A DNA stretch of 32,000 nucleotides from Patescibacteria group bacterium (GTDB lineage: Bacteria > Patescibacteriota > Patescibacteriia > 2-01-FULL-39-33): assembly GCA_041662745.1 (NCBI GenBank), contig JBAZRV010000001.1:150001-182000 (forward strand), written 5' to 3'. Shown in pieces: positions 2,023-29,313 of this stretch. Position 1 is the stretch's first letter. Each line of letters opens with the position of its first letter. The position numbers and the translations under genes were made by a program. The notes below the pieces were generated by a model, which was given only the letters and a program-made list of their open reading frames with translations, was not told where the DNA came from and ran no database searches.

Positions 2023-2835
2023 TTAAATTAATTCAATACTGCTTATGATTAAATTCACTATTTGATTGGAAACAGCATCTTCTCCCCGTCCAAGCACTTG
2101 GATTTCGTAAACTTTATCCGCTGTTTTTAGGTAAACGCGCCGATCGATTTCTCCCGTTACCGGAGTCGTGCGGGTATAGTATAAGACAGCGGTGCTGGTA
2201 GAATTAAGCGAGGTTTCATCAAGCGAATAATCTTTCAAATCAATTTTATTTCGGGAGAACCAAGAGAAAAGCGATTGTTTGCGATTGTCCGATTGCGCCG
2301 TAACAGTTATCAGCGTAAAAGATTCCGGAATAGTGCCAGTTAAATCGTAATCGGTTAAACGCAGAGTATTCTGGCTTTCATCCATTTGCCAATTCGGCGG
2401 TAAACGGAAAGTTAGGCCAAGAACAGCAGAGGTTCTTTCGGGCCATAATTCCGGTTCATTTTGCTTTATTTCTTTAATTACATTTTCTTTGATTGCCGCC
2501 AAGTCTTCCGGCGATATTAGGGGGGTGGTTGAAGCAATATTGCCGGATAAATCAAATTTTCCCAAAGCTGAATCAATTTCTTTTTTTATTTGTTCTAAGT
2601 TGAGATTTTTCGTTTCATTGGCGATGTTGCCGGATAAAGATAAGAACCAACAAACTATAACTACCGCCATTAGGGCGGTGATAATCAGCCAGATCAATAC
2701 GGCTTTTTTTTCCAAAGGCGGAGTATTGATATTGATATAACGCGGCTCCGTCGGTTTAGTTGTCGGTTTTGAGGTGCGTTTTTTACTGCCTCCCGATTGT
2801 TTCCGCCGCGGAGCGGAAGATTTTGTTTGACGCAT
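2023..2835 (-). CDS. hypothetical membrane-anchored protein (270 aa)
   Basis: Track ORF. Basic N-terminus (RRKQSGGSKKRTSKPTTKP), one TM helix (AVLIWLIITALMAVVIVCWFLSL), then a ~200-aa soluble domain. TAA stop. No family recognised. Confidence 0.7.
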   Translation of the reverse strand: MRQTKSSAPRRKQSGGSKKRTSKPTTKPTEPRYININTPPLEKKAVLIWLIITALMAVVIVCWFLSLSGNIANETKNLNLEQIKKEIDSALGKFDLSGNIASTTPLISPEDLAAIKENVIKEIKQNEPELWPERTSAVLGLTFRLPPNWQMDESQNTLRLTDYDLTGTIPESFTLITVTAQSDNRKQSLFSWFSRNKIDLKDYSLDETSLNSTSTAVLYYTRTTPVTGEIDRRVYLKTADKVYEIQVLGRGEDAVSNQIVNLIISSIELI

Positions 2836-2859
2836 GGGAAAAAGTTCAAATGGTTTTAA

Positions 2860-3498
2860 TTAGACCGTTAAGATGATTACTCTGGTATCTTCAGCAATCA
2901 AATCCTTTTTAGTAACCCGCAATTTTTCTTGAGTTTCTGATTTTAAACCGCAGTGCTTGAGATAATTTCCGGCATCGGCCAGCGCGGTTTTTTGTCCGTT
3001 GATTTTATAATGTATCGGAATAATTACTCTTGGCTCTAATTGCGAGGCGACTTCAATCGCTTTTTTGTCGTCTAAAACATCGTTGCCGCCCACCGGCAGA
3101 AATAAAATATCAATATTGCCCAGTTGGTCAATTTGCTCATCGGTTAAGGTTTTATCTAATCTGCCCAGATGGGCGATGGATATTTCTTCGGCGATAATTT
3201 TATAGATCGTGTTCTGAGTCTTTTCCTTGCCTGAAGAATTTAGGCCGGCCAGGCCGTAAATAAAGATGCCCTTAGTCTCATATTCGCCAGGGTGGACAAT
3301 GGCAAACGGTTCGCCGCGGATCGCCCCAAAGTTGGCATGTTCTTCGTGATTGCTGGATGCCGTAACGATGTCGGCTTGAAAGCGCGGCATTTTAAATGAT
3401 CCATCATCGGCGAATGGATCCAGAGCGATCACCAAGTCTTCGCCCTGGCCTTTGGTTTGGATTTTCACGGCCGATAAGCCTAACCATTGAATTATCAT
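2860..3498 (-). CDS. MBL-fold metal-dependent hydrolase-like protein (UPF0173/Lactamase_B_3-like, 212 aa)
   Basis: Layout matches the family: IQWLGLSAVKIQT...ALDPF N-terminus, degenerate His motif SSNHEEHAN, IAHLG, IDILFLPVGG, and PRVIIPIHY near the C-terminus. Confidence 0.7.
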   Translation of the reverse strand: MIIQWLGLSAVKIQTKGQGEDLVIALDPFADDGSFKMPRFQADIVTASSNHEEHANFGAIRGEPFAIVHPGEYETKGIFIYGLAGLNSSGKEKTQNTIYKIIAEEISIAHLGRLDKTLTDEQIDQLGNIDILFLPVGGNDVLDDKKAIEVASQLEPRVIIPIHYKINGQKTALADAGNYLKHCGLKSETQEKLRVTKKDLIAEDTRVIILTV

Positions 3499-3668
3499 AA
3501 TTTTTACTGTAAAATTGATTTGAGGTGTATCATCTCGTTAATAAATCTGTCTTAATTATACAGAATTTTGCTTCGTCAATCAAGTGATCCGGCCGTTCTA
3601 ATTTTATTGTTTAATCGGCGGAGAAGATGTTTAAGTTGTTTGTTTTTGTCTGGCCTTATTAAAATTAC

Positions 3669-3740
3669 GCCCTCGTAGTTCAATGGATAGAACAAGGGAC
3701 TCCTAAGCCCTAGATCCGGGTTCGATTCCCGGCGGGAGCA
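3669..3740 (+). tRNA. tRNA-Arg (anticodon CCU), no encoded CCA
   Basis: Hand-folded 72-nt cloverleaf: acceptor GCCCTCG/CGGGAGC (one C-A mismatch), D arm GTTC/GAAC, anticodon arm AGGGA-CTCCTAA-GCCCT, T arm CCGGG-TTCGATT-CCCGG, discriminator A. Confidence 0.85.
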
Positions 3741-3835
3741 AAAGTGCATCAAAAGTCTTCAAAAGGGTTACAGATCTTAACGAAGAAAAATTTTTAAAAT
3801 TACAATTGAAAAGTTGTAATTTTTTATTTATTTAA

Positions 3836-3855
3836 TGTCTAGACATGTCTAGACA
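3836..3855. repeat. tandem pair of the 10-bp perfect palindrome TGTCTAGACA (site 1 of 3)
   Basis: TGTCTAGACATGTCTAGACA read directly. Identical 20-mer at 4071-4090 and a variant at 3913-3932. Confidence 0.9.
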
Positions 3856-3912
3856 ATGAAGAAATTATTTGTTTAATTTTAGCAAAATTAGTTTTTATAA
3901 AAATAAAAGTAA

Positions 3913-3932
3913 TGTCCGGACATGTCTAGACA
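3913..3932. repeat. palindrome pair TGTCCGGACA+TGTCTAGACA (site 2 of 3), nested in a larger inverted repeat
   Basis: TGTCCGGACATGTCTAGACA. Flanking arms AAAGTAATGTC (3906-3916) and GACATTACTTT (3929-3939) are reverse complements. Confidence 0.85.
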
Positions 3933-4040
3933 TTACTTTTATTTTATTGCAGTTATTATTATTAAGTTTATAAATTTTTAATAATATAATTTTTTTGTTT
4001 AAATTTAGATAAAAACAGTATTAACAGTCTTGTGGAAATC

Positions 4041-14530: not shown

Positions 14531-17500
14531 ATGAGACCAAGACAGAGACACGAATCAATTGATGAAAGCGCTCCCGAAGCAGGTATCGGCGGATTAATCG
14601 CAACCGCCAAAGAGTCCGGTCATGTGGATTTGCGCTCTTTTTCTCTCGAGCGGTTGGCGCAATTGGCTCAATGGTATCGGGACAGTTTTGAATCTTTGGA
14701 TAAGGGAGATAGAGTGGAGTTTTTGGAACAATTCATGTCCCTGAATGAATTTGATGACCGGGAAAGCTTGGAGTTTATTAATAAAATAGATTTTGAATCA
14801 AGAGCCGAAATCGGTATTTTTATTTATCGCACGCTTGACGGTCTGAAGTTTATCCAAGCCTTTCAGGAATGCTGGCCGGCCATTGATTATGATCAAAGAA
14901 GCGAGATGGTCTTGTTTATTATTAAGAAGCGTCCCGCCTTGTTATTGATGATTGCTCCTTTTGTGAAATTAAGCCGGTGGTCCAAGGATGGTCGGTACGT
15001 TCTTTTGCCCAATTGGCAACATGAGAGGAGCAAGCCGGCTGACAGTCTGCAAAAAGAACGGTTTTCCGCTTATGAGAAAAGTTCCGAACTGATAGAGGGA
15101 TTATTGCGGTATTCGGAAAACCATCCTGAAGAAAACAGCAGTGCAGTCAGGGATAATTTGTCCAATATGAATCCGGCCTTGTTGATTCCTTATTTGGATC
15201 GGATAGAAAATTTGCATATTTTAAGCAAGGAGCAAATAAAAAATATCGCTACGGCTCCGCAAAGATTTTTGCCGGTAGATATTTTTTATACAACTGAAGA
15301 TCTTGAAGAAAAAAAAGCGATAATGAAGGAATTGGAGGCTTACCATCCAGATGAAGAAGAGAGGACGGCTCTGAAGTATCTTTATCCGACAGAAATAACC
15401 CCGCTTAAGTTAGGCGTTAAGCTGGCGAAAATAGAAAACCGCGCTCTTTTGAGGAAAACCCAGGCGCTGTTGAGTACGTTCCGGGATCGTCAGGGTAAAT
15501 TGGGCCAGGACAAATTGGATTATTTGTTCAAGTTAGTTGAAGACGGCGTTCCGGTATTCGCTCAAATTGATAATTTGGGCTTGTCAAAAACAGAGCTTGC
15601 GGCCTTGCTTAACCGTTGCGTTGAAGAAGAAGATTTTCCTTTCGGCGTCTTGCTTGACTTGAGCGATCTTAAAAAGTTTGTGGAATTCAGCCGTCGCACT
15701 GAGTCTGGGTCCGAAGCCGATCTGGAACAATCTTTAATTCGCCAGGTAATCAAAAATTTGCAAGAAAATGGCGAGTATGGCCGCGTAGGCAATGCCGTAG
15801 CCTTAAATGCCGAAGGATTTTTTTCGATTTTCAGAGTTAGCGAGCGGCAAAAAATATGGGATGCCGTAAATAAATTTGCCCCCGCTCTTTGGCTTAATAA
15901 TATAAATTATGCCATTAAACATGGGATTATGACATTTGATGAGCTGATCACGATTAGCTCCGGCGATGATCAAAATTTCATTAAAAAGTATCATAGATTA
16001 TTATATCACCTGCATCAATTGCGGCGGGAAGGCAAACCGGTAGAGGCGTCGGTAGAATCATTGGCCGGTAAAGCCAAATCGCTTTTTTCCGCCAACCCCT
16101 ACCTGTTTTTGCAAGCTGACAATTCTAAAATAGTGAAAAGCATTTATTCTCAAGCGGAACAGCAACAATTCATTACGGAACAGCTGACTGGGAATGTCAA
16201 TTCTTACTTTTTTGAGGCCTTATTGTCGTCTGAATATATTAATCAATATGCTGATGTTTGCCGGAGGCTTTTGGCCGAGAATGGCTATTTATTTGCCGTT
16301 GTAACGGAGTATTCCCATATCTGGGAAAGGGCTCGAAGGTTTGTTGAAACTAAAGAATTGATTGATTTGGTAATCCGTCATGCTGAAAGTATAAATTTTT
16401 CAACGTTATTTGATGATCTTTATTTAATTGCGGAATTAGGAAAAAAACCGGCCAAAGCGGCGGCTTTGGCGGAGCGTTTAACGGAATTGAATAATTTTTC
16501 GGCGTTAGCCCGATTGAACGAGGGAATCAATCGGTATGGCAAAGAAGAACAGAGATTGCAGAAGAAATTGCAATCTTTGCCGCAATTAAGTTATTTAAAT
16601 GATGAGGAAAAACAGAAAGAAGGCGAACGGCTTAAAAAAGAATTGGCCGAGCTGGTTGATAACGGCTATGAAGCGAATAATCGCAATTTAGAATTATTGG
16701 CCAGAGAGACGATAGAAATTTTAATTGAGGCCTGCGAGTCAAACAGGTTTTTGGTTTTTGATGAGAATATCTTAGTAACCGAGGGATTAGATGCGGCTAA
16801 ATATATCATTAGAGATTTGCCCGGCTATATAGCCGTTAATCCTGAAATATTATTTGAAGTGGATACTCGTCCGAATCGCGGGGAATCATCAATGTTGTGC
16901 GAAAACATCTTAGGTGAAGATAAGTATCATTTGCTTATACGAGAAAATGCGAGGCTTTTAGCCTTCAGGAAGAGTGAATATGGAGTCGCTTTTGACAATA
17001 AGTTTGTTCGGCCGGAGACATTGAAGCGGATTGAGGAAATGAACCCTTTAATTGGTTTGCTTGCTCAAAGCAAAACAGATTTGGATTATTACTCTGCGGT
17101 TTTAAGGCGGGTGATGGAAACGCCATTGGCGGGGCTATACCGAAAGGAATTGGAAAAAATAATCAAGGACAAGAAAGAAGCGGGTGAACCGAGATTGATT
17201 ACCGGATTTTTTGAAGCGGATAACGATTTTGAACAGCCGGCAAAAAAGATTTTTTTGCTCAACAGCCATGCGGCGATCAGAGCGCATGCCGGCTGGCTGA
17301 TGTCTCTGCCGGAAAATCAGCAAACCGAGCTTGTAGGCTTATTGGAATTTTCTCTGCTCAATGGTTTGGTTTTTTTGGGCAAAATATTGCAATCAGAGGA
17401 CTTCAGCGAAGTTAAGAAGGAGTTGCAAGGCGGTATTGAAGAGTTTGTTTTATATGTTTTCGGCCTGGAAGATCTGCCAGAATTGTCTTTTGACAATTTA

Positions 17501-18760
17501 TCAGTTGATTCAACTCGCGCCTTGATGATTTATTATTACAAGTCTTGCAAAAAAGATCGTTATCAGGAGTTGGCCTTTAAGGATTTCATTATTCATGTTT
17601 TGAACGGCACCTATGGTTTTTGGCGTGCTTGGGATAGCAACATTGACCCTGAAGACAAACTTTCACAGCTTAATAAATTGAAGGAGAAAAAGCTAATACC
17701 CGAGGGTTTGACCTTGGATCAATATCGGCAATGGCTTGATGAGGAAAAGTTTAAGTTTGAAGAAACTCTCGCTTATGATATTTCCGATCTGAAGGCGGGT
17801 ATTGGCGATATAATCGGTGATGCCGTGGCTGACGGCCATATTACTGAAGAATCCCTTGATTTATCCGGTATTGATGAAAAATACAACACCCTAATTGAGC
17901 CGTTGAATATTTTTACCAATCGCCAGAGAGAATTGCGCGAATTGTCTAAAACGGCGGGGTTGACTGAGGAGCGTCAGGCAGAGTACAAGGAGTTGGCTCG
18001 TCAGATAGCCGATTATCGCAAAAAACACGAGACTGAGATGACCGCCATCTTAGCGCTTAAATATTTGTCCGGCTTAAAAAATTTAACCGCCCATGAGTTG
18101 GAAAATCAAGTATTGATTTTAAAGAATAAAAATCAGGTGCCGTTAAAAAAGGCCCTTAGTTTGTTGGCAGAGCATTTTGGAGAAAAATCCCCTGATTTTA
18201 TAGGTGATATCAATCGTATCCGCCAATTGCTTGCCGGCGGTTTTGAGCAGATTTATGGCGGTAAAAAAGTTTCAAGAGGAAAGCTTTACTTGACTGACAG
18301 GGTTGATTTGGAAACCTATGTCTTTATCGGAGAAAGGCCTGTCGCCTCTTGCCAAAATTACGATGGCCGTAGCGGCCAGAATGCCGGACTGTTATCTTAT
18401 TTGTCCGACCCCAATGTTAAGATTATTCAAATATACAATGAGAGCGGGGGTATTATCGCTCGCAGCGTTATGCGTTTAGTTGAAGATGATGATAATAAAC
18501 CGCAATTATTCATTGAGAGAACATATTCAGCCAATCCGCATCCCAAAATTAATGAAGCCATTGTTAATTTTGCCAAGCTTAAAGCGGAAAAAATGAATGT
18601 CGGTTTATATGCCTCTGTTTCTGTCGGGTCCAATCAAGGAACGGCAGCGGCCGATCTTCATAATAATAATAGCCGCAGCGCTTATGTTTATACTGATGCG
18701 GCCGGCGGTAGAATTCCCAAGGGGCGTTTTACTATCAGGAGCGCCAAGTTAATCCGCTGA
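14531..18760 (+). CDS. giant hypothetical protein (1409 aa), no recognised family
   Basis: A single uninterrupted 4.2-kb ORF with protein-like composition. No signal peptide, TM segment, P-loop or HExxH seen. Helix-favouring, E/K/L-rich. Distinct C-terminal ~170 aa (FIGERPVASCQNYDGRSGQNAGLLSYLSDPNVKIIQIYNESGGIIARSVMRL). TGA stop. Confidence 0.8.
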   Translation: MRPRQRHESIDESAPEAGIGGLIATAKESGHVDLRSFSLERLAQLAQWYRDSFESLDKGDRVEFLEQFMSLNEFDDRESLEFINKIDFESRAEIGIFIYRTLDGLKFIQAFQECWPAIDYDQRSEMVLFIIKKRPALLLMIAPFVKLSRWSKDGRYVLLPNWQHERSKPADSLQKERFSAYEKSSELIEGLLRYSENHPEENSSAVRDNLSNMNPALLIPYLDRIENLHILSKEQIKNIATAPQRFLPVDIFYTTEDLEEKKAIMKELEAYHPDEEERTALKYLYPTEITPLKLGVKLAKIENRALLRKTQALLSTFRDRQGKLGQDKLDYLFKLVEDGVPVFAQIDNLGLSKTELAALLNRCVEEEDFPFGVLLDLSDLKKFVEFSRRTESGSEADLEQSLIRQVIKNLQENGEYGRVGNAVALNAEGFFSIFRVSERQKIWDAVNKFAPALWLNNINYAIKHGIMTFDELITISSGDDQNFIKKYHRLLYHLHQLRREGKPVEASVESLAGKAKSLFSANPYLFLQADNSKIVKSIYSQAEQQQFITEQLTGNVNSYFFEALLSSEYINQYADVCRRLLAENGYLFAVVTEYSHIWERARRFVETKELIDLVIRHAESINFSTLFDDLYLIAELGKKPAKAAALAERLTELNNFSALARLNEGINRYGKEEQRLQKKLQSLPQLSYLNDEEKQKEGERLKKELAELVDNGYEANNRNLELLARETIEILIEACESNRFLVFDENILVTEGLDAAKYIIRDLPGYIAVNPEILFEVDTRPNRGESSMLCENILGEDKYHLLIRENARLLAFRKSEYGVAFDNKFVRPETLKRIEEMNPLIGLLAQSKTDLDYYSAVLRRVMETPLAGLYRKELEKIIKDKKEAGEPRLITGFFEADNDFEQPAKKIFLLNSHAAIRAHAGWLMSLPENQQTELVGLLEFSLLNGLVFLGKILQSEDFSEVKKELQGGIEEFVLYVFGLEDLPELSFDNLSVDSTRALMIYYYKSCKKDRYQELAFKDFIIHVLNGTYGFWRAWDSNIDPEDKLSQLNKLKEKKLIPEGLTLDQYRQWLDEEKFKFEETLAYDISDLKAGIGDIIGDAVADGHITEESLDLSGIDEKYNTLIEPLNIFTNRQRELRELSKTAGLTEERQAEYKELARQIADYRKKHETEMTAILALKYLSGLKNLTAHELENQVLILKNKNQVPLKKALSLLAEHFGEKSPDFIGDINRIRQLLAGGFEQIYGGKKVSRGKLYLTDRVDLETYVFIGERPVASCQNYDGRSGQNAGLLSYLSDPNVKIIQIYNESGGIIARSVMRLVEDDDNKPQLFIERTYSANPHPKINEAIVNFAKLKAEKMNVGLYASVSVGSNQGTAAADLHNNNSRSAYVYTDAAGGRIPKGRFTIRSAKLIR

Positions 18761-22902: not shown

Positions 22903-23520
22903 TCACTTTTTTATTTCCTGGCCGGCCTGCTGGCGTCCGGGTTGCATCAATTGCCGTAATTTGTCTTGATTTGTGCCCAACTCCTCCCAGGTGAAAATTC
23001 CCTTGGCCTGCAGGGTTATGATCTGTTTAAAAATAGCATAGCCGGATCGCGGGTCGACAGGCGGCTTTCGGTCAAATTTTTTGACAGTCTGTTGGCAGAG
23101 ATCAATCATTCGCGTTTTCACTGCTTGAGCTGTTGTCGGATCAACCCGGCAGAGCGCCGGCCATTGGATCAGGTTACTGGCCATGGCATCGCAGAGGTAT
23201 TGGTGGTACTGTGGTTGACGTTTTTTCTGACAGTGATAATTAAAGGCCGTCTGGATGGCCTGATCGGCAATCCGGTCTTTTTGCGGACCGTTAGCTTGAT
23301 TAAAATCACGGCGTAATCGTCTCATTTCCGCTCCGAAAGCGGGACTGAAGCCGCAATAATCGTTAGCGCCGTTAAGCCGGCCGGGGCCATTGGCGTTAAG
23401 TTGCTGTTGAAAGCCAAGAAGTTGTTGCCGATAGTAATTATTTAACCATAAGACGATTGTTGCCAGCAGAATCAATGAAACCATGCCGAGCGTTGTAAGG
23501 AATTTTTGTGTTTTAGCCAT
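22903..23520 (-). CDS. hypothetical N-terminally anchored or secreted protein, Gln/Cys-rich (205 aa)
   Basis: Track ORF trimmed to the ATG at 23520 after TGAGGTAATC. TM/signal anchor LTTLGMVSLILLATIVLWL. Several Cys. TGA stop. Confidence 0.55.
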   Translation of the reverse strand: MAKTQKFLTTLGMVSLILLATIVLWLNNYYRQQLLGFQQQLNANGPGRLNGANDYCGFSPAFGAEMRRLRRDFNQANGPQKDRIADQAIQTAFNYHCQKKRQPQYHQYLCDAMASNLIQWPALCRVDPTTAQAVKTRMIDLCQQTVKKFDRKPPVDPRSGYAIFKQIITLQAKGIFTWEELGTNQDKLRQLMQPGRQQAGQEIKK

Positions 23521-23622
23521 GATTACCTCATTTTTTTTGGTTGAGAAGTTGATTTCAGGATTCAATCGCGGTATAAAGAGCTTGAAAAGCCAGTTTATCA
23601 TTTTTATTTTCAGTTGTCAATT

Positions 23623-24715: not shown

Positions 24716-24744
24716 TTGACAATAATGACTTATTTTAGTAAGAT
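24716..24744 (+). promoter_or_regulatory. sigma70-like promoter of the E2/JAB/E1/Ubl operon
   Basis: TTGACA (24716-24721), 17-nt spacer, TAAGAT (24739-24744). About 100-nt leader, then AAAGGAG before the ATG at 24850. Confidence 0.6.
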
Positions 24745-24849: not shown

Positions 24850-26286
24850 ATGCCTGACACATCAGCCGCCAGTAATATTGAGTCCAATGATAAAAGGAGC
24901 GGATATAGGGTTTCTACACAAAATTGGGATGGTTTTAATCGCAGGGGGTTTAGGACAATTGCCAGAGAAGTCTTATTGCCGATTGTTCAAAAAGATATCG
25001 TTATCAGCGTTCCTCGGCAGACAGAAGATTTTTCTAATAATGGTAAATTCAATATTAAAATTTTGTCTTCGCCACAAGGTTTGCCGAAGACCAATATGCC
25101 GAAAGAGATTTTTGGTCATAGAGTTTTTTATGATCTTAATGATTCATATACGGCTACTGGCTTGGGAGAAGCTATTATTGATGAGTCAACCGGTTATGCG
25201 GTAGCTGAGTTATTCCCCGACAATCTTTATATTCATTATGATATTTGTCACAGCGATGAACTTTATGAACTGAAAATTTTTAGGTTGCTTTTAAAGAAGG
25301 TAGCGGCTTTTTTGCAGTTATTGCCAGCTGAGATGGCCCAGCGGCGCAAACAGCAGCAGGAGAAAATTTTGATTGCTAATCGGGAGAGATATGCGGCGTT
25401 GCTATCCTCATTGATAAACAGTGGATCAAGAGCTGCGGATGCAGAACGAATTACTGAAATGGAAGAAAAAATCAGGGATCAGCGGATTGCTTTGACGCAA
25501 GCATTATTTGAATTGGCAGCGGCCAAACGGAAGCAGGCCGATAGTATCGGCTCTAAAGGTCAAACTGAAATACTGGCAGAGTTTGAGCGATTAAGGTCTA
25601 TGTCCAAGGTACGGGATGTGGCTGTTAGCGATGATGGGACTATCAGCGTAACTACTAATGTCTTATATTGTCGCAACAAAGCCACGGGATTGCTATACGA
25701 GATTGGCGCCTTCCGGTTGGATATACGGCTTAAGTTGGTAGGGGATTATTCGGAGCCCGAAGATTATCTTTCCTTTACCAATATTACTAGGACAATCGGC
25801 GGTTATCTCAGTGATCACTCGCACCATCCTCACATTTTTAAACCAAAAGATTTTTGCCTGGGCAATGCCGAAGAGATTGTCCCCGATCTCTTGTCTAATT
25901 TAGAAATTCGGGCTCTGGTTGGCGTCATGATTCAATTTATTGAGTCAGTTAACCCTCGTGATGACGCCGGTGTAGGGATATTTCTTTGGCCGTTAGCGCC
26001 ATTAGAAATGCAATCTCCGGAAGCGCAGGACAGATTGAAGGATTTATGGTCGCAAGAGGATAATCCTTTCAAAAACGTTGATGCTCCATTAAGAACGTTC
26101 GTTCGAACAGCGCAAATCATGCCTAAGGGTTATGATATCGCGTTTGACTGCGGTTGGCGGAAATGGCATCTGAACGGTGCACTGGCATATACCAGAGAGA
26201 TAGCAACATGGTTAGGCGTTGATGAGGCTTGGGCTTATGTTATTATGGCGAATTATTTTTCTGTTGCATCATCACAAATTACTTGA
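24850..26286 (+). CDS. E2 (UBC-fold)-like conjugating enzyme candidate with a long N-terminal extension and coiled coil (478 aa)
   Basis: Residues ~255-370: strand run ISVTTNVLY / LLYEIGAFRLDIRL, then HHPHIFKPKDFCLG (HPN-like flap plus Cys336, codon 25855-25857), then helices EEIVPDLLSNLEIRALVGVMIQFIESV. Residues ~158-250 are heptad-like (QRRKQQQEKILIANRERYAALL...). Residues 1-150 and 380-478 are unassigned. The operon context supplies E1, JAB and Ubl. Confidence 0.55.
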   Translation: MPDTSAASNIESNDKRSGYRVSTQNWDGFNRRGFRTIAREVLLPIVQKDIVISVPRQTEDFSNNGKFNIKILSSPQGLPKTNMPKEIFGHRVFYDLNDSYTATGLGEAIIDESTGYAVAELFPDNLYIHYDICHSDELYELKIFRLLLKKVAAFLQLLPAEMAQRRKQQQEKILIANRERYAALLSSLINSGSRAADAERITEMEEKIRDQRIALTQALFELAAAKRKQADSIGSKGQTEILAEFERLRSMSKVRDVAVSDDGTISVTTNVLYCRNKATGLLYEIGAFRLDIRLKLVGDYSEPEDYLSFTNITRTIGGYLSDHSHHPHIFKPKDFCLGNAEEIVPDLLSNLEIRALVGVMIQFIESVNPRDDAGVGIFLWPLAPLEMQSPEAQDRLKDLWSQEDNPFKNVDAPLRTFVRTAQIMPKGYDIAFDCGWRKWHLNGALAYTREIATWLGVDEAWAYVIMANYFSVASSQIT

Positions 26287-26340: not shown

Positions 26341-27081
26341 GTGAAGAAGATTAAACGTGGTCCGGCTGGTAGTTCTGCGAACGGGCCGTCCAGGTCCAGA
26401 GCAAAATTTTTCCGACCGCACGCCTTTCGGAACGAGGTGTCCTTGATTGGCGGTGAACCATTGATCATAGTAACTCCGGAAGTCCAGGAAGGAATGTATC
26501 ATATTGCCGATCAAGCCAGAGGAGAGGCCGGCTGGCTGGGAACAGTTTCCGAACTTCCTGAAAGAACTTATGTTATTGATGAGCTTTTCATTTTTAAGCA
26601 GAGAGTTGACGCGCTTACCAATACCTTAACCAGAGAAGGGTTGTCCGCGGTAGGCATGGAAATACTTAGACGTCCGGATGGCATGGAAGTTTGGAATCGG
26701 GTAAGGTTCTGGGGACATAGCCATGGAACCCTATCAACCGCTCCGTCGTTTCAAGATAAACAGCAATTTTCGTTATTGGGTAATTCGGGTTTCCCCTACT
26801 TTATTAGAGGGATAATTAATCGTTTAGGCCGGATGGAATTTTCTATCATGTATTATGATTCGGGAATTCTGATAGAAGACGTTCCTTGGCAGATTTCTAA
26901 CACTATAACCGACAATCAGGCTGAGTTTATCGCTAATCAATTAGCAGAAAAAGTCACTTGGGTTGATCAGAGACGCGTTGGCAAAGGCGCTATAGGAGGT
27001 TTTTTTGACGGTTTATTGGTTTCTGGTTTGCCGGGAGATCTGACTGTGGAGGAGATGTTAGTGTTGGGAGGGGGGTCATGA
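26341..27081 (+). CDS. JAB/MPN+ (JAMM) metalloprotease (246 aa)
   Basis: GTG start after AAGGAG. Complete JAMM signature: GE62AGWLG ... H126-S-H128-GTLSTAP-S136-FQ-D139 (E...HxHx7Sx2D). Confidence 0.8.
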   Translation: MKKIKRGPAGSSANGPSRSRAKFFRPHAFRNEVSLIGGEPLIIVTPEVQEGMYHIADQARGEAGWLGTVSELPERTYVIDELFIFKQRVDALTNTLTREGLSAVGMEILRRPDGMEVWNRVRFWGHSHGTLSTAPSFQDKQQFSLLGNSGFPYFIRGIINRLGRMEFSIMYYDSGILIEDVPWQISNTITDNQAEFIANQLAEKVTWVDQRRVGKGAIGGFFDGLLVSGLPGDLTVEEMLVLGGGS

Positions 27082-27776
27082 GTATTAATCCGACGCGTCA
27101 CTTGCAAGTATTTTCTCCTCAAGAGTTTAGCAAGACCGGTTACTTAGTTGATGTGATTGGTTGCGGAGCTACCGGTTCGCATATAGTTTTGTCCTTAGCC
27201 AGATTGGGTATTACTAATATTCGCGTTTGGGATTTTGACACGGTTCAAGCCCACAACATTCCTAATCAAGTGTTTGGCTTGAAGGACATCAATCGTCCAA
27301 AAGTAGCGGCGATACATGATGCGGTTGCGGCGGCGACTGGTACGAGCATAGATATACGCGATGTTAGGTTTGACGGCGGCCCCGGCCAAGAATTGGGCGA
27401 TATTGTGTTCCTCTTGACAGACACTATGGCCTCGCGTAGAATGATCTGGGAGAGTTCCATTAAATTTAATATAAATATTCGGTTAATGGTTGAAACGCGC
27501 TTAGGCGCTGAATCAGGTAAGATTTATACCATTAATCCTAGCCTTCTCGGTCACGTCCAGGGTTGGGAAAGCACTTTATGTGAAGATCGGGTTGCGGCTC
27601 CTAGCGCTTGTGGGGCCATTACTTCAGTCGGGCCGACAGCGGAAATCGTTTCCGGAATCGCCGTGTGGCAATTAATGGACTGGTTTAGAATCAAACAGGG
27701 AAAGGAGGTAGAGCTGCCTAATGAAGTATTTTTTTCTGTTCGGCCTTGGATGATGCTGACTCGGTATTTTAGGTAG
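27078..27776 (+). CDS. ThiF/MoeB-type E1-like adenylyltransferase, minimal (232 aa)
   Basis: VDVIGCGATGSHIVLSLARLG (GxGxxG), RVWDFDTVQAHNIPNQ, VFLLTDTMASR, ACGAITSVGPTAEIVSGIAV. Cys168 and Cys178 lie in the crossover-loop region. The ATG overlaps the JAB stop (ATGA). Confidence 0.8.
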   Translation: MSINPTRHLQVFSPQEFSKTGYLVDVIGCGATGSHIVLSLARLGITNIRVWDFDTVQAHNIPNQVFGLKDINRPKVAAIHDAVAAATGTSIDIRDVRFDGGPGQELGDIVFLLTDTMASRRMIWESSIKFNINIRLMVETRLGAESGKIYTINPSLLGHVQGWESTLCEDRVAAPSACGAITSVGPTAEIVSGIAVWQLMDWFRIKQGKEVELPNEVFFSVRPWMMLTRYFR

Positions 27777-27853: not shown

Positions 27854-28099
27854 ATGGAAGACAAGGGATTCATTCTCGTTAAAGTCGGAAAATTGCCGGG
27901 CGTAATCAAGGAAGTCGGCCTGAGTGATTGCGACGGCGAGCGAACGATCGCCAAGGCGTTGAAGGGCGCTGAATTGGAAAAAGAAGAGGGGTACGAGGTT
28001 CGCGTCAATAATGACGTTGTCGCGGACGACGATGTTGCCGATTATGAATTGTCCGATGGCGATATCGTTATCCTGGTTGAGGACATCGTCGGCAATTAA
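27854..28099 (+). CDS. ubiquitin-like beta-grasp protein (ThiS/MoaD/Ubl-like, 81 aa) ending Gly-Asn
   Basis: RBS AAGGAG. Size, alternating strand pattern (FILVKVGKLPG), and the C-terminal ELSDGDIVILVEDIVGN match the l.dGD.v.i...v.GG tail of sulfur-carrier and Ubl proteins. Operon context also supports the call. Confidence 0.65.
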   Translation: MEDKGFILVKVGKLPGVIKEVGLSDCDGERTIAKALKGAELEKEEGYEVRVNNDVVADDDVADYELSDGDIVILVEDIVGN

Positions 28100-28140: not shown

Positions 28141-28167
28141 AGCCGGGTAGCTTATCCGGCTTTTTTA
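28141..28167 (+). terminator. rho-independent terminator of the Ubl operon
   Basis: AGCCGG-GTAGCTTAT-CCGGCT followed by TTTTTAT. Confidence 0.75.
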
Positions 28168-28188
28168 TTTTAATAATTTTATCATCCT

Positions 28189-28259: not shown

Positions 28260-28333
28260 GGGCAATTAGCTCAGTTGGTTAGAGCGTCTCGTTGACGTCG
28301 AGAAGGTCAGTGGTTCGAATCCACTATTGCCCA
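28260..28333 (+). tRNA. tRNA-Val (anticodon GAC), no encoded CCA
   Basis: GGGCAAT-TA-GCTC-AGTTGGTTA-GAGC-G-TCTCG-TTGACGT-CGAGA-AGGTC-AGTGG-TTCGAAT-CCACT-ATTGCCC-A. Confidence 0.9.
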
Positions 28334-28383
28334 CATAAGTACCTGCATAAAATAAAAACGGCCTAAAGCCGATTTTTTATTTT

Positions 28384-28408
28384 GTAAAAAAAGCGCCAAA
28401 ATGGCGCT
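28384..28408 (-). terminator. terminator overlapping the stop codon of the secreted-protein gene
   Basis: Minus strand AGCGCC-ATTTT-GGCGCT followed by TTTTTTT. Confidence 0.6.
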
Positions 28409-29195
28409 ATTCTCGTATAAAGATCTTAATAGGCTGTTCATCGCGTCGTTTTTCGGTTATTGCAACAGTAAAGTAAAACCAATCAGTCTGGCTTTCTCCG
28501 ACGGGCTGCCAGATTTCTTCCCCGCCTCCCCCGTCTTCTATGTTGAGACAAATTAGTTGATAAGCAACCGCTTTAACCGCTATCAGATAACTAATATCGC
28601 GATGCCTGGCTCCGGCAGATTCTTTGCCGTCGTCCCCCAAGCGGTCGTTATACCCGGGACAATTTTCCGGAGCCGGCCTTAAGAAGCCGTTTCGGAGCTC
28701 TTCAATGTATAATTGCCCATCTCCTCGGACAACCCAATGTCCGACCTTAGTGTCACGGATATCTTCCGGGATAAAGAAGGAATAGTTTCTTTTTGCCGGC
28801 AGGATTTTCCCTCTGGCAATCAGGCACGAATCGGCATAAATTTCCCAGCGCAGTTCAAATTCTAATCCTTCATTTTGATACTCGGCCGTTACGCCGTAAC
28901 TCATGTCAATTTTTGCCTCAATGCGTTGGCAGGCGTCTTCCGGCGGCAAGAAGATTTTTTGGACCGGACCGAATAACCGTTCGGAATCATTTATTTTTCG
29001 TAAGTCATCATTAGTCTGATCGGCATCAGTACGATTATAAAAAATAATCGGATGAAGATTGAGGAAGGTGTAAATCTGATTTTCTGTCAAAGCCAATTGG
29101 TTGCTTTGGAAAAAACTCATCTCCTCGGCGCCGGGCAATAAGGCGGGCAATGAACAGAGCAAAAACAAGCAGACGGGCAGGGGCAGCCTTTTCAT
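28407..29195 (-). CDS. hypothetical secreted protein (262 aa)
   Basis: Track ORF trimmed to the ATG at 29195 after AGAGGAG. Signal peptide MKRLPLPVCLFLLCSLPALLPGAEE. The track's longer 5' extension reaches 29270 and would overlap the tRNA-Ile gene (29241-29313). Confidence 0.6.
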   Translation of the reverse strand: MKRLPLPVCLFLLCSLPALLPGAEEMSFFQSNQLALTENQIYTFLNLHPIIFYNRTDADQTNDDLRKINDSERLFGPVQKIFLPPEDACQRIEAKIDMSYGVTAEYQNEGLEFELRWEIYADSCLIARGKILPAKRNYSFFIPEDIRDTKVGHWVVRGDGQLYIEELRNGFLRPAPENCPGYNDRLGDDGKESAGARHRDISYLIAVKAVAYQLICLNIEDGGGGEEIWQPVGESQTDWFYFTVAITEKRRDEQPIKIFIRE

Positions 29196-29240
29196 GATAC
29201 GGTCTCCTCTTGGTTGTGTTTGAAAGAACTTTGTTGATAG

Positions 29241-29313
29241 TAGGCCTGGATGGATTTGAACCATCGACATCTACCTTATAAGGGTAGCGCTCTAACCCCT
29301 GAGCTACAGGCCC
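29241..29313 (-). tRNA. tRNA-Ile with anticodon UAU, no encoded CCA
   Basis: Minus strand GGGCCTG-TA-GCTC-AGGGGTTA-GAGC-G-CTACC-CTTATAA-GGTAG-ATGTC-GATGG-TTCAAAT-CCATC-CAGGCCT-A. The body closely resembles bacterial tRNA-Ile(GAU). The anticodon loop reads C-T-TAT-A-A. Confidence 0.8.

Follow-up and report, generated by a model that had tools for sequence, protein, structure and literature searches.

A large multidomain E2-like protein as the putative conjugating enzyme of a four-gene ubiquitination-like operon in Patescibacteria

The stretch of DNA analyzed here, referred to as the window, comprises 32,000 nucleotides from a Patescibacteria group bacterium (GenBank assembly GCA_041662745.1, contig JBAZRV010000001.1, positions 150,001 to 182,000); all positions below are those of the window. 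It carries a gene, here called X (24850..26286, plus strand), whose multidomain product of 478 amino acids is an oversized relative of the ubiquitin-conjugating (E2) enzymes. Judging from sequence, we consider it fairly probable that X is the E2 of a self-contained ubiquitination-like operon comprising X, a JAMM/JAB metallopeptidase (JAB), an E1-like adenylating enzyme (E1) and a ubiquitin-like protein (Ubl), and that the additional modules of X would have E3-like or docking-like functions, making it similar to an E2/E3 hybrid.

An E2-like core in the product of gene X

Gene X is a genuine open reading frame (ORF). A strong ribosome-binding site (RBS), AAAGGAGAA, lies 5 to 7 nt 5' of its ATG. 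Comparable sites stand before the next two genes that are initiated independently, so that three genes of the operon have an RBS. The protein is 100% identical to P0001, annotated as "hypothetical protein" in a Patescibacteria metagenome-assembled genome (MAG), and its closest relative, P0002 from a Candidatus Buchananbacteria MAG, shares 52% identity in an alignment that begins at residue 1. Because P0002 aligns from the first residue and the conserved columns of the alignment begin at W26/G28, the long N terminus appears to be translated and not to be the product of a wrong start. The length of 478 residues and the start given in the initial annotation of this DNA, which was made from the letters alone, were borne out in this way, and a true start far downstream, which that annotation had named as one of two conditions that would undo its reading, is contradicted.

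Scans with the single sequence of X against Pfam, NCBIfam, PADLOC, PHROGs and, by phmmer, the PDB returned coiled-coil noise only, such as DNA polymerase I and XerS. The domain anatomy is based on an AlphaFold (AF2) model computed with 99 family sequences, with a predicted local distance difference test (pLDDT) score of 82.4. It superseded an earlier model from 5 sequences (pLDDT of 64), whose Foldseek matches to E2s had E values of 0.16 to 1.3. The model divides X into four parts, namely an N-terminal (N) domain, two long helices, a UBC/E2-like core and a Trp-rich tail.

The UBC/E2-like, putatively catalytic core occupies residues 238 to 385 (25561..26004, plus strand). A helix at residues 238 to 249, strands between residues 254 and 311, a loop and a helix at residues 338 to 364 correspond to elements of the UBC fold. 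The structural comparison suggested in the initial annotation returned E2s (UbcH7/UbcH8) as all of the top eight PDB matches, with a best E value of 3e-3 and a probability of 0.99, indicating that the E2-like core is real. When a profile of 45 family cores was searched against all PDB sequences with hmmsearch, only E2s were retrieved (UBE2L3 and UBE2A/B; E values of 0.37 to 1.6), and neither BilB nor Cap2 appeared at an E value of ≤10. In this search the profile segment "aPHvxxxGxaCLG" aligned with "HPNIDEKGQVCLP" and "GkFrIeI" with "GAFRIEI". Comparison of the core with a UBC profile by hhalign also produced a match (88%, E value of 3e-6, 118 columns) in which the catalytic cysteine was aligned; the UBC profile consisted of nine human E2 sequences and may contain small errors. 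In this alignment "SVN..D.AG" of the core was placed on "PNP.DPL" of UBC. The P-H-x7-C of the core was aligned to the HPN...C of UBE2L3 and UBE2D2.

The putative active site is the motif H325-H326-P327-H328-x7-C336 (25822..25857, plus strand), with a spacing identical to that of HPN-x7-Cys. Of 157 family cores, 144 retain the P-H...C residues. Taken together, the Foldseek matches, the UBC profile and the parts seen in the AF2 model support the earlier description of X as an E2-like enzyme bearing extra modules.

Two UBC-like cores were present in 7 of the best 150 relatives of X (P0020, P0029, P0032, P0034, P0044, P0054 and P0070), a set ranked by full-length profile and biased as a result toward carriers of the N domain, and also in L014 (127-2142). 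The first of the two cores always keeps P-H...C, and the second is often degenerate (PL..L, PQ..F, PK..R) and similar to the ubiquitin E2 variants (UEVs), an arrangement resembling an E2-UEV pair in one chain. Foldseek also matched X to uncharacterized proteins of uncultured tailed phages (BFVD entries A0A6J5NL39, A0A8S5PR93 and A0A516LW79) at E values of 1.8e-5 to 6e-4, better than for any PDB entry; these matches are reported without aligned ranges.

Accessory regions of X

The initial annotation had recognized no motif in residues 1 to 150. Residues 1 to 155 likewise gave no match in Pfam, NCBIfam, PADLOC, PHROGs or PDB sequences, yet residues 20 to 155 (24907..25314, plus strand) form a confidently predicted alpha+beta domain (pLDDT of 90 to 97). 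Among the best 150 relatives, 203 copies of this N domain were detected, with one copy in 108 proteins, two in 33 and three to five in 8. Mean pairwise identity was 31.6% for the N domain versus 41.5% for the core, indicating that the N domain diverges faster, and repeats inside one protein share a mean identity of 27%, i.e., they are old. Family conservation revealed no catalytic-looking conserved residue in the N domain, in which a single Gly reaches 90%. The survey of homologues proposed in the initial annotation, which looked for a variable N domain on a conserved core, gave a mixed result: copy number varies and divergence is faster, but one and the same N domain occurs in 149 of the 150 relatives. 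There is also a subfamily of X in which the N domain was undetected and the N-terminal region of ~115 residues gives no N-domain match.

Several identities considered for the N domain were rejected. A degenerate copy of an E2 or UEV is contradicted by hhalign values of 0.9% against the core and 0.3% against UBC. The sole PDB match of the N-domain profile, poly-gamma-glutamate hydrolase (E value of 0.79), whose zinc ligands are not conserved, was treated as noise, as were weak Foldseek matches to class I glutamine amidotransferases (probabilities of 0.15 to 0.38).

The N domain is followed by a linker of two long charged helices at residues 159 to 195 and 198 to 231 (25324..25542, plus strand; pLDDT of 61 to 81), which span 73 residues and contain 27 to 41% charged residues. 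This region had been described as a coiled coil of ~90 residues. Its helical and charged nature was upheld, but its heptad regularity was no better than that of shuffled sequences, a best-register test of hydrophobic a/d positions giving P values of 0.31 and 0.075 for the helices and 0.85 for the whole stretch. A linker hidden Markov model of ~70 residues was detected in 132 of the 150 relatives; the length is fixed, and the polar positions R180 and Y181 are conserved family-wide.

The C-terminal tail (residues 386 to 478; 26005..26283, plus strand; pLDDT of 43 to 79) contains 5 Trp in 93 residues (5.4%), compared with 0 to 0.7% in the other three regions of X, in agreement with the Trp-rich tail noted earlier. 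This type of tail is rare, being found in 5 of the best 150 relatives, and the tails of relatives have a C-x2-C-x-C...C cluster at sites where X has Trp or His residues. The end of the tail is a helix pair resembling a helix-turn-helix, for which Pfam matches were subthreshold and found in relatives only. The Trp-rich tail is a lineage-specific accessory add-on. Most relatives (e.g., P0003, residues 1 to 75) possess an extra N-terminal segment of ~75 residues with the consensus M.nYFi...agi.f..f.idg..Givide, which is absent from X and, according to hhalign, is unrelated to the Ubl, N domain, core and tail. The possibility that the tail is this segment relocated, or that either of them is a beta-grasp domain, was rejected. 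The ten longest relatives of X displayed no informative domain fusions.

Partner genes of the operon

X, JAB, E1 and Ubl are bracketed by a promoter-like site upstream and a strong terminator downstream. The former (TTGACA-17-TAAGAT; 24716..24744, plus strand) matches 10 of 12 consensus positions and is a pattern match only, from a consensus scan that found 11 such sites against 8.0 expected from shuffles. The latter is an intrinsic-terminator-like hairpin (28141..28171, plus strand) with a 9-bp stem including 5 GC pairs, followed by the T-run TTTTTATTTT.

The gene after X encodes a JAMM/JAB metallopeptidase of 246 residues (26341..27081, plus strand) with the motif E62...H126-S-H128-x7-S136-x2-D139. 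This motif is unchanged across 13 homologues, and the protein has a weak Pfam Prok-JAB match (0.057). JAB adjoins X in every locus having sufficient flank. It overlaps the E1 gene (27078..27776, plus strand) by 4 nt, which implies translational coupling. The E1 is a minimal ThiF-like adenylating enzyme of 232 residues (Pfam ThiF, 7.3e-18) with a single ThiF domain at residues 25 to 203; among solved structures it comes nearest to E. coli ThiF (1.3e-4). The GCGATGS (ATP) loop and S176-A-C178-G are invariant, and D115 was also marked. Once trimmed to the conserved domain, homologues of E1 aligned along the length of this protein, their raw ORF lengths of 228 to 341 residues including unverified upstream starts. 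Judging from the phmmer offsets (24-193 versus 31-199), C178 probably lies at or beside Cys184 of E. coli ThiF.

The last gene (27854..28099, plus strand) encodes a beta-grasp Ubl of 81 residues ending in V-G80-N81, with weak matches to ThiS (Pfam, 7.4e-4; TIGR01683, 1.2e-4, subthreshold). The ending [K/R]-G-N (28091-28099 in the window; L001-L053) was found in 29 of 34 distinct homologues, where it closes the first beta-grasp domain. In some of these the chain stops at the Asn, and in others it continues for one or two residues or through an entire second beta-grasp domain. A Gly-Gly end occurs in just 2 of the 34. The conservation of a one-residue Asn cap suggests that it has a specific role, for example as a P1' determinant for JAB or as a switch.

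In genome, metagenome and viral collections, 43 distinct loci were found, and X was accompanied by JAB, E1 and Ubl wherever the contig was long enough, in a gene order that varies among loci. Clustering of the neighborhoods of 15 nonduplicate loci revealed no fifth gene family recurring near X. Since no family beyond these four recurs, the system appears to lack a separate E3, as the initial annotation had also assumed. In PADLOC, X, JAB and Ubl had no match, and E1 matched only the Rossmann part of Cap2 models; in NCBIfam, X and JAB had none and Ubl had only a weak subthreshold thiS match.

Some loci have long Ubl genes (L013, L015, L016 and L046; also L037, L043 and L047) that encode two beta-grasp domains plus a helical tail of 60 to 240 residues. 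Where the Ubl was visible, a long multidomain Ubl was present in 4 of 4 loci with an X lacking the N domain versus 3 of 27 with an X containing it (Fisher P of ~0.001, calculated by hand and uncorrected for phylogeny). Tandem X paralogues upstream of one JAB-E1-Ubl set were seen in L017 (5434-8403), L021 and L041.

The family of X, its hosts and its chromosomal setting

The family came to light only when 1.84 billion cluster representatives (50% identity clusters) were scanned exhaustively with HMMER; a word-indexed homologue search, even when given alignments, recovered only 4 or 5 relatives. The family comprises 2,727 clusters at an E value of ≤1e-3, of which the weakest may include helical-repeat noise, 1,804 at ≤1e-10 and 650 at ≤1e-30. 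Its members combine zero to five N domains with the core and with a helical linker whose length is fixed. The family has no match in Pfam, NCBIfam, PADLOC or PHROG, and none of 99 members hits a real Pfam family. Named hosts are mostly members of the Candidate Phyla Radiation (CPR), including Saccharibacteria, Paceibacterota, Parcubacteria, Buchananbacteria and Doudnabacteria; single cases outside the CPR were Thermoanaerobaculia, Obscuribacteraceae and a "Flavobacteriaceae" MAG. X thus marks a large operon family that has so far gone without annotation and is centered on Patescibacteria/CPR, and it can be regarded as the signature gene of these operons.

The window is ordinary chromosome of uniform GC content, with genes for IMPDH, ClpP, S16, an epimerase, a CCA-adding enzyme and tRNAs, and the cassette is syntenic, with the same flanks, in the Buchananbacteria relative. 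A search of GenBank phage genomes with tblastn found no homologue except for one match at the level of coiled coils. The cassette also occurs on two contigs classed as viral by IMG/VR, L017 (207 kb) and L018 (188 kb), which may be phages of CPR bacteria or misclassified CPR genome fragments. On L017, genes for an Apyc1-like metallo-beta-lactamase (Pfam, 3.8e-24) and for an RlaP nucleotidyltransferase are situated ~1.5 kb upstream of it (2386-3976).

Among the neighbors of the operon, a tRNA-Val(GAC) (28260-28334) lies directly past the terminator. A tRNA-Ile with the anticodon UAU (29240-29313) overlaps the 5' end of an ORF at 28407..29270 (minus strand), so the start of that ORF is probably further downstream. 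About 1.2 kb upstream of the operon, an ORF of 232 residues (22903-23601, minus strand) gave a subthreshold match to Pfam Herpes_teg_N (E value of 0.0073; 16 bits versus a cutoff of 25), which is probably noise. This domain is the herpesvirus tegument deubiquitinase region and is of possible interest given the adjoining Ubl operon. An ORF of 1,409 residues (14531-18760, plus strand) had no Pfam match at an E value of ≤1e-4.

Discussion

Each step of the cascade that we propose is drawn from conserved motifs together with precedents from the bacterial ISG15-like (Bil) systems and from eukaryotes. The JAMM peptidase would trim the C-terminal Asn cap off the pro-Ubl, exposing Gly80. The small ThiF-like E1, probably acting as a homodimer, would adenylate Gly80 and may hold the Ubl on Cys178 in the SACG crossover-loop motif. 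The Ubl would then pass to Cys336 of X, positioned eight residues past the P-H motif as the E2 cysteine is after HPN, and X would transfer it to an amine of the target, a modification that JAB could undo.

Eukaryotic UBC E2s (UBE2L3/UbcH7, UBE2L6/UbcH8 and UBE2A) are the best structural and profile matches of X and share with it the first helix, the four-strand meander, the active-site loop and the second helix, as well as an x-P-x...Cys spacing equal to that of HPN-x7-C. They differ in that X has His in place of the HPN asparagine, carries a family-specific insertion just upstream of the active-site loop with a near-invariant Asn311 (154 of 157 cores), lacks the C-terminal helices and does not pass as UQ_con. 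Large E2/E3 hybrids of the UBE2O/BIRC6 type have substrate-binding modules and a coiled-coil segment before the UBC domain and act without a separate E3. Their resemblance to X is an analogy of architecture only, the accessory domains having no detectable homology.

Among bacterial systems, the BilABCD operons, of which types I and II correspond to classes 6d and 6c of Iyer et al. 2006 (PMC1779556), come close in composition. Both have four genes, for Ubl, E2, JAB deubiquitinase and E1, and no E3; in both, a conserved Gly of the Ubl precedes one or more residues to be removed (here a prediction from sequence); and in both, the E2 lacks the last UBC helices and is itself proposed to select the target. 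The Gly-plus-tail Ubl of Bil is preprocessed by its deubiquitinase (Chambers et al., PMC10557695). Unlike the 232-residue ThiF-like E1 found here, however, the Bil E1 is a multidomain protein (IAD, AAD and CYS, with a zinc site). The Bil E2 is a single domain with a helper His downstream of the Cys (CEHH), whereas X has a conserved His at -8, none conserved after C336, and adds one to five N domains and a helical linker. The Ubl cap is a conserved Asn in place of variable tails, and the hosts are mostly Patescibacteria. We read the operon as Bil-like in composition but lacking three features that define Bil, namely the multidomain E1, the downstream His and the model match.

The other known operons are more distant. 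Type II cyclic oligonucleotide-based antiphage signaling systems (CBASS) likewise pair E1/E2-type machinery with a peptidase (Cap2/Cap3), and Cap2 was among the weak Foldseek matches (E value of ~1), but Cap2 is an E1-E2 fusion that conjugates the CD-NTase, whereas E1 and E2 are separate here and no CD-NTase recurs. Bub operons (6E/DUF6527) form Ser/Tyr oxyesters and use the serine protease DUF6527 (PMC11601596). BubCD was among the weak matches of E1 (9e-4), but the present operon has conserved cysteines in E1 and E2, a JAMM peptidase and no DUF6527 match. We found no account of a Ubl system in Patescibacteria in the literature that was searched, although papers beyond it may exist.

Since the operon encodes no E3 and its E1 lacks E2-docking domains, the N module(s) and linker of X most likely supply target selection and/or assembly of E1 and Ubl. 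The suggestion of the initial annotation that they recognize substrates or drive oligomerization is reasonable but unproven, and the data would fit docking to the unusually small E1 or to the Ubl just as well. Under a rival that we regard as possible but appreciably less probable than our preferred reading, the conjugation chemistry is the same and the N domain(s) and linker are assembly modules that dock the E1 dimer, bind the Ubl noncovalently or dimerize X, replacing the UFD and CYS domains missing from the 232-residue E1. This would fit an E1 that is just a ThiF-sized adenylation domain, a linker fixed at ~70 residues with conserved R180 and Y181, the covariation of the type of X N terminus with Ubl architecture (X without N domains being paired with long multidomain Ubls) and the presence of the N domain in nearly all examined relatives, where it is not swapped for unrelated binding domains. 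On the other hand, neither fusion nor covariation with E1 length was seen, and N-domain copy numbers of one to five together with tandem X paralogues served by a single E1/Ubl/JAB set are easier to explain by differing targets, to which the faster divergence of the N domain also points.

Two further rivals concern the chemistry itself. It seems improbable that the genes form a sulfur-carrier pathway of the ThiS/MoaD/CysO/QbsE type, in which E1 would generate a Ubl thiocarboxylate, JAB would trim the carrier and the Cys of X would relay sulfur. The sole library matches of the Ubl are to ThiS, albeit weak, the nearest solved relative of E1 is ThiF, and the biosynthesis of cysteine and of thioquinolobactin involves triads of carrier, E1 and JAB (Iyer et al. 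2006, PMC1779556). X has, however, the UBC fold and E2-type motif spacing, and the carrier terminates in [KR]-G-N, with one Gly before the Asn, and not in the Gly-Gly of ThiS and MoaD. Fusion to a second beta-grasp domain and a long helical tail is seen in some carriers, and no rhodanese, cysteine desulfurase, sulfurtransferase or biosynthetic enzyme recurs beside the cassette. Even less probable, and indeed very doubtful in our opinion, is that X is a noncatalytic UEV/RWD-like scaffold with a structural Cys/His pair. The absence of the HPN asparagine and the frequent degeneration of second cores, from which it follows that the fold tolerates loss of the motif, would suit a scaffold; the retention of P-H...C in most cores, including every first core where a protein has two, and the exact alignment of the X cysteine with the catalytic cysteine of E2s speak for a catalytic role.

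Several observations weigh against X being the E2 of a conjugation operon with target-selecting modules. The E2 assignment rests on remote homology: the Foldseek TM-scores of X against E2s are just 0.43 to 0.47 on the target at the E value of 3e-3, and neither X nor any of the 99 members matches Pfam UQ_con or Prok-E2_A-E at an E value of ≤0.01. The asparagine of HPN, which stabilizes the oxyanion in E2s, is replaced by His in at least 90% of the family and is present in only 3 of the 157 cores; we speculate that Asn311 might stand in for it. The E2 cascade itself is read from sequence and predicted structure only. The N domain has no recognizable binding fold or conserved surface motif, making its role a guess, and two of the three tandem paralogue pairs show no excess divergence in the N domain. 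Whereas the tails of Bil Ubls vary, the Asn after the Gly of the Ubl is conserved here and may do more than serve as a removable cap. Finally, the operon sits amid housekeeping genes, with native GC content and in synteny with the 52%-identical relative, a setting untypical of defense islands.

A role of the operon in conflict or antiviral defense, by analogy with Bil and CBASS, is our leading guess. We give a small chance to an alternative in which the operon, instead of being a sporadic defense island, is a chromosomally stable protein-tagging system of Patescibacteria, X being an E2/E3 hybrid that uses arrays of a new recognition domain to mark endogenous or host-cell proteins and the conserved one-residue Asn cap being a regulated on-switch. 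The ultrasmall Patescibacteria are not known to have a proteasome or Pup system.

Protein conjugation by CBASS type II, Bil and Bub operons was shown only recently, and all three, as far as we know, were found in well-sampled phyla. The family of X would represent a fourth architecture of bacterial ubiquitination-like operons, one that is concentrated in the CPR and in which the smallest E1 is paired with the largest E2. The motif spacing of the core and its best profile matches, which are to eukaryotic UBCs and not to BilB or Cap2, bear on the evolution of E2 enzymes, and the arrays of N domains may offer a tractable test of how targets are chosen in a system without an E3.

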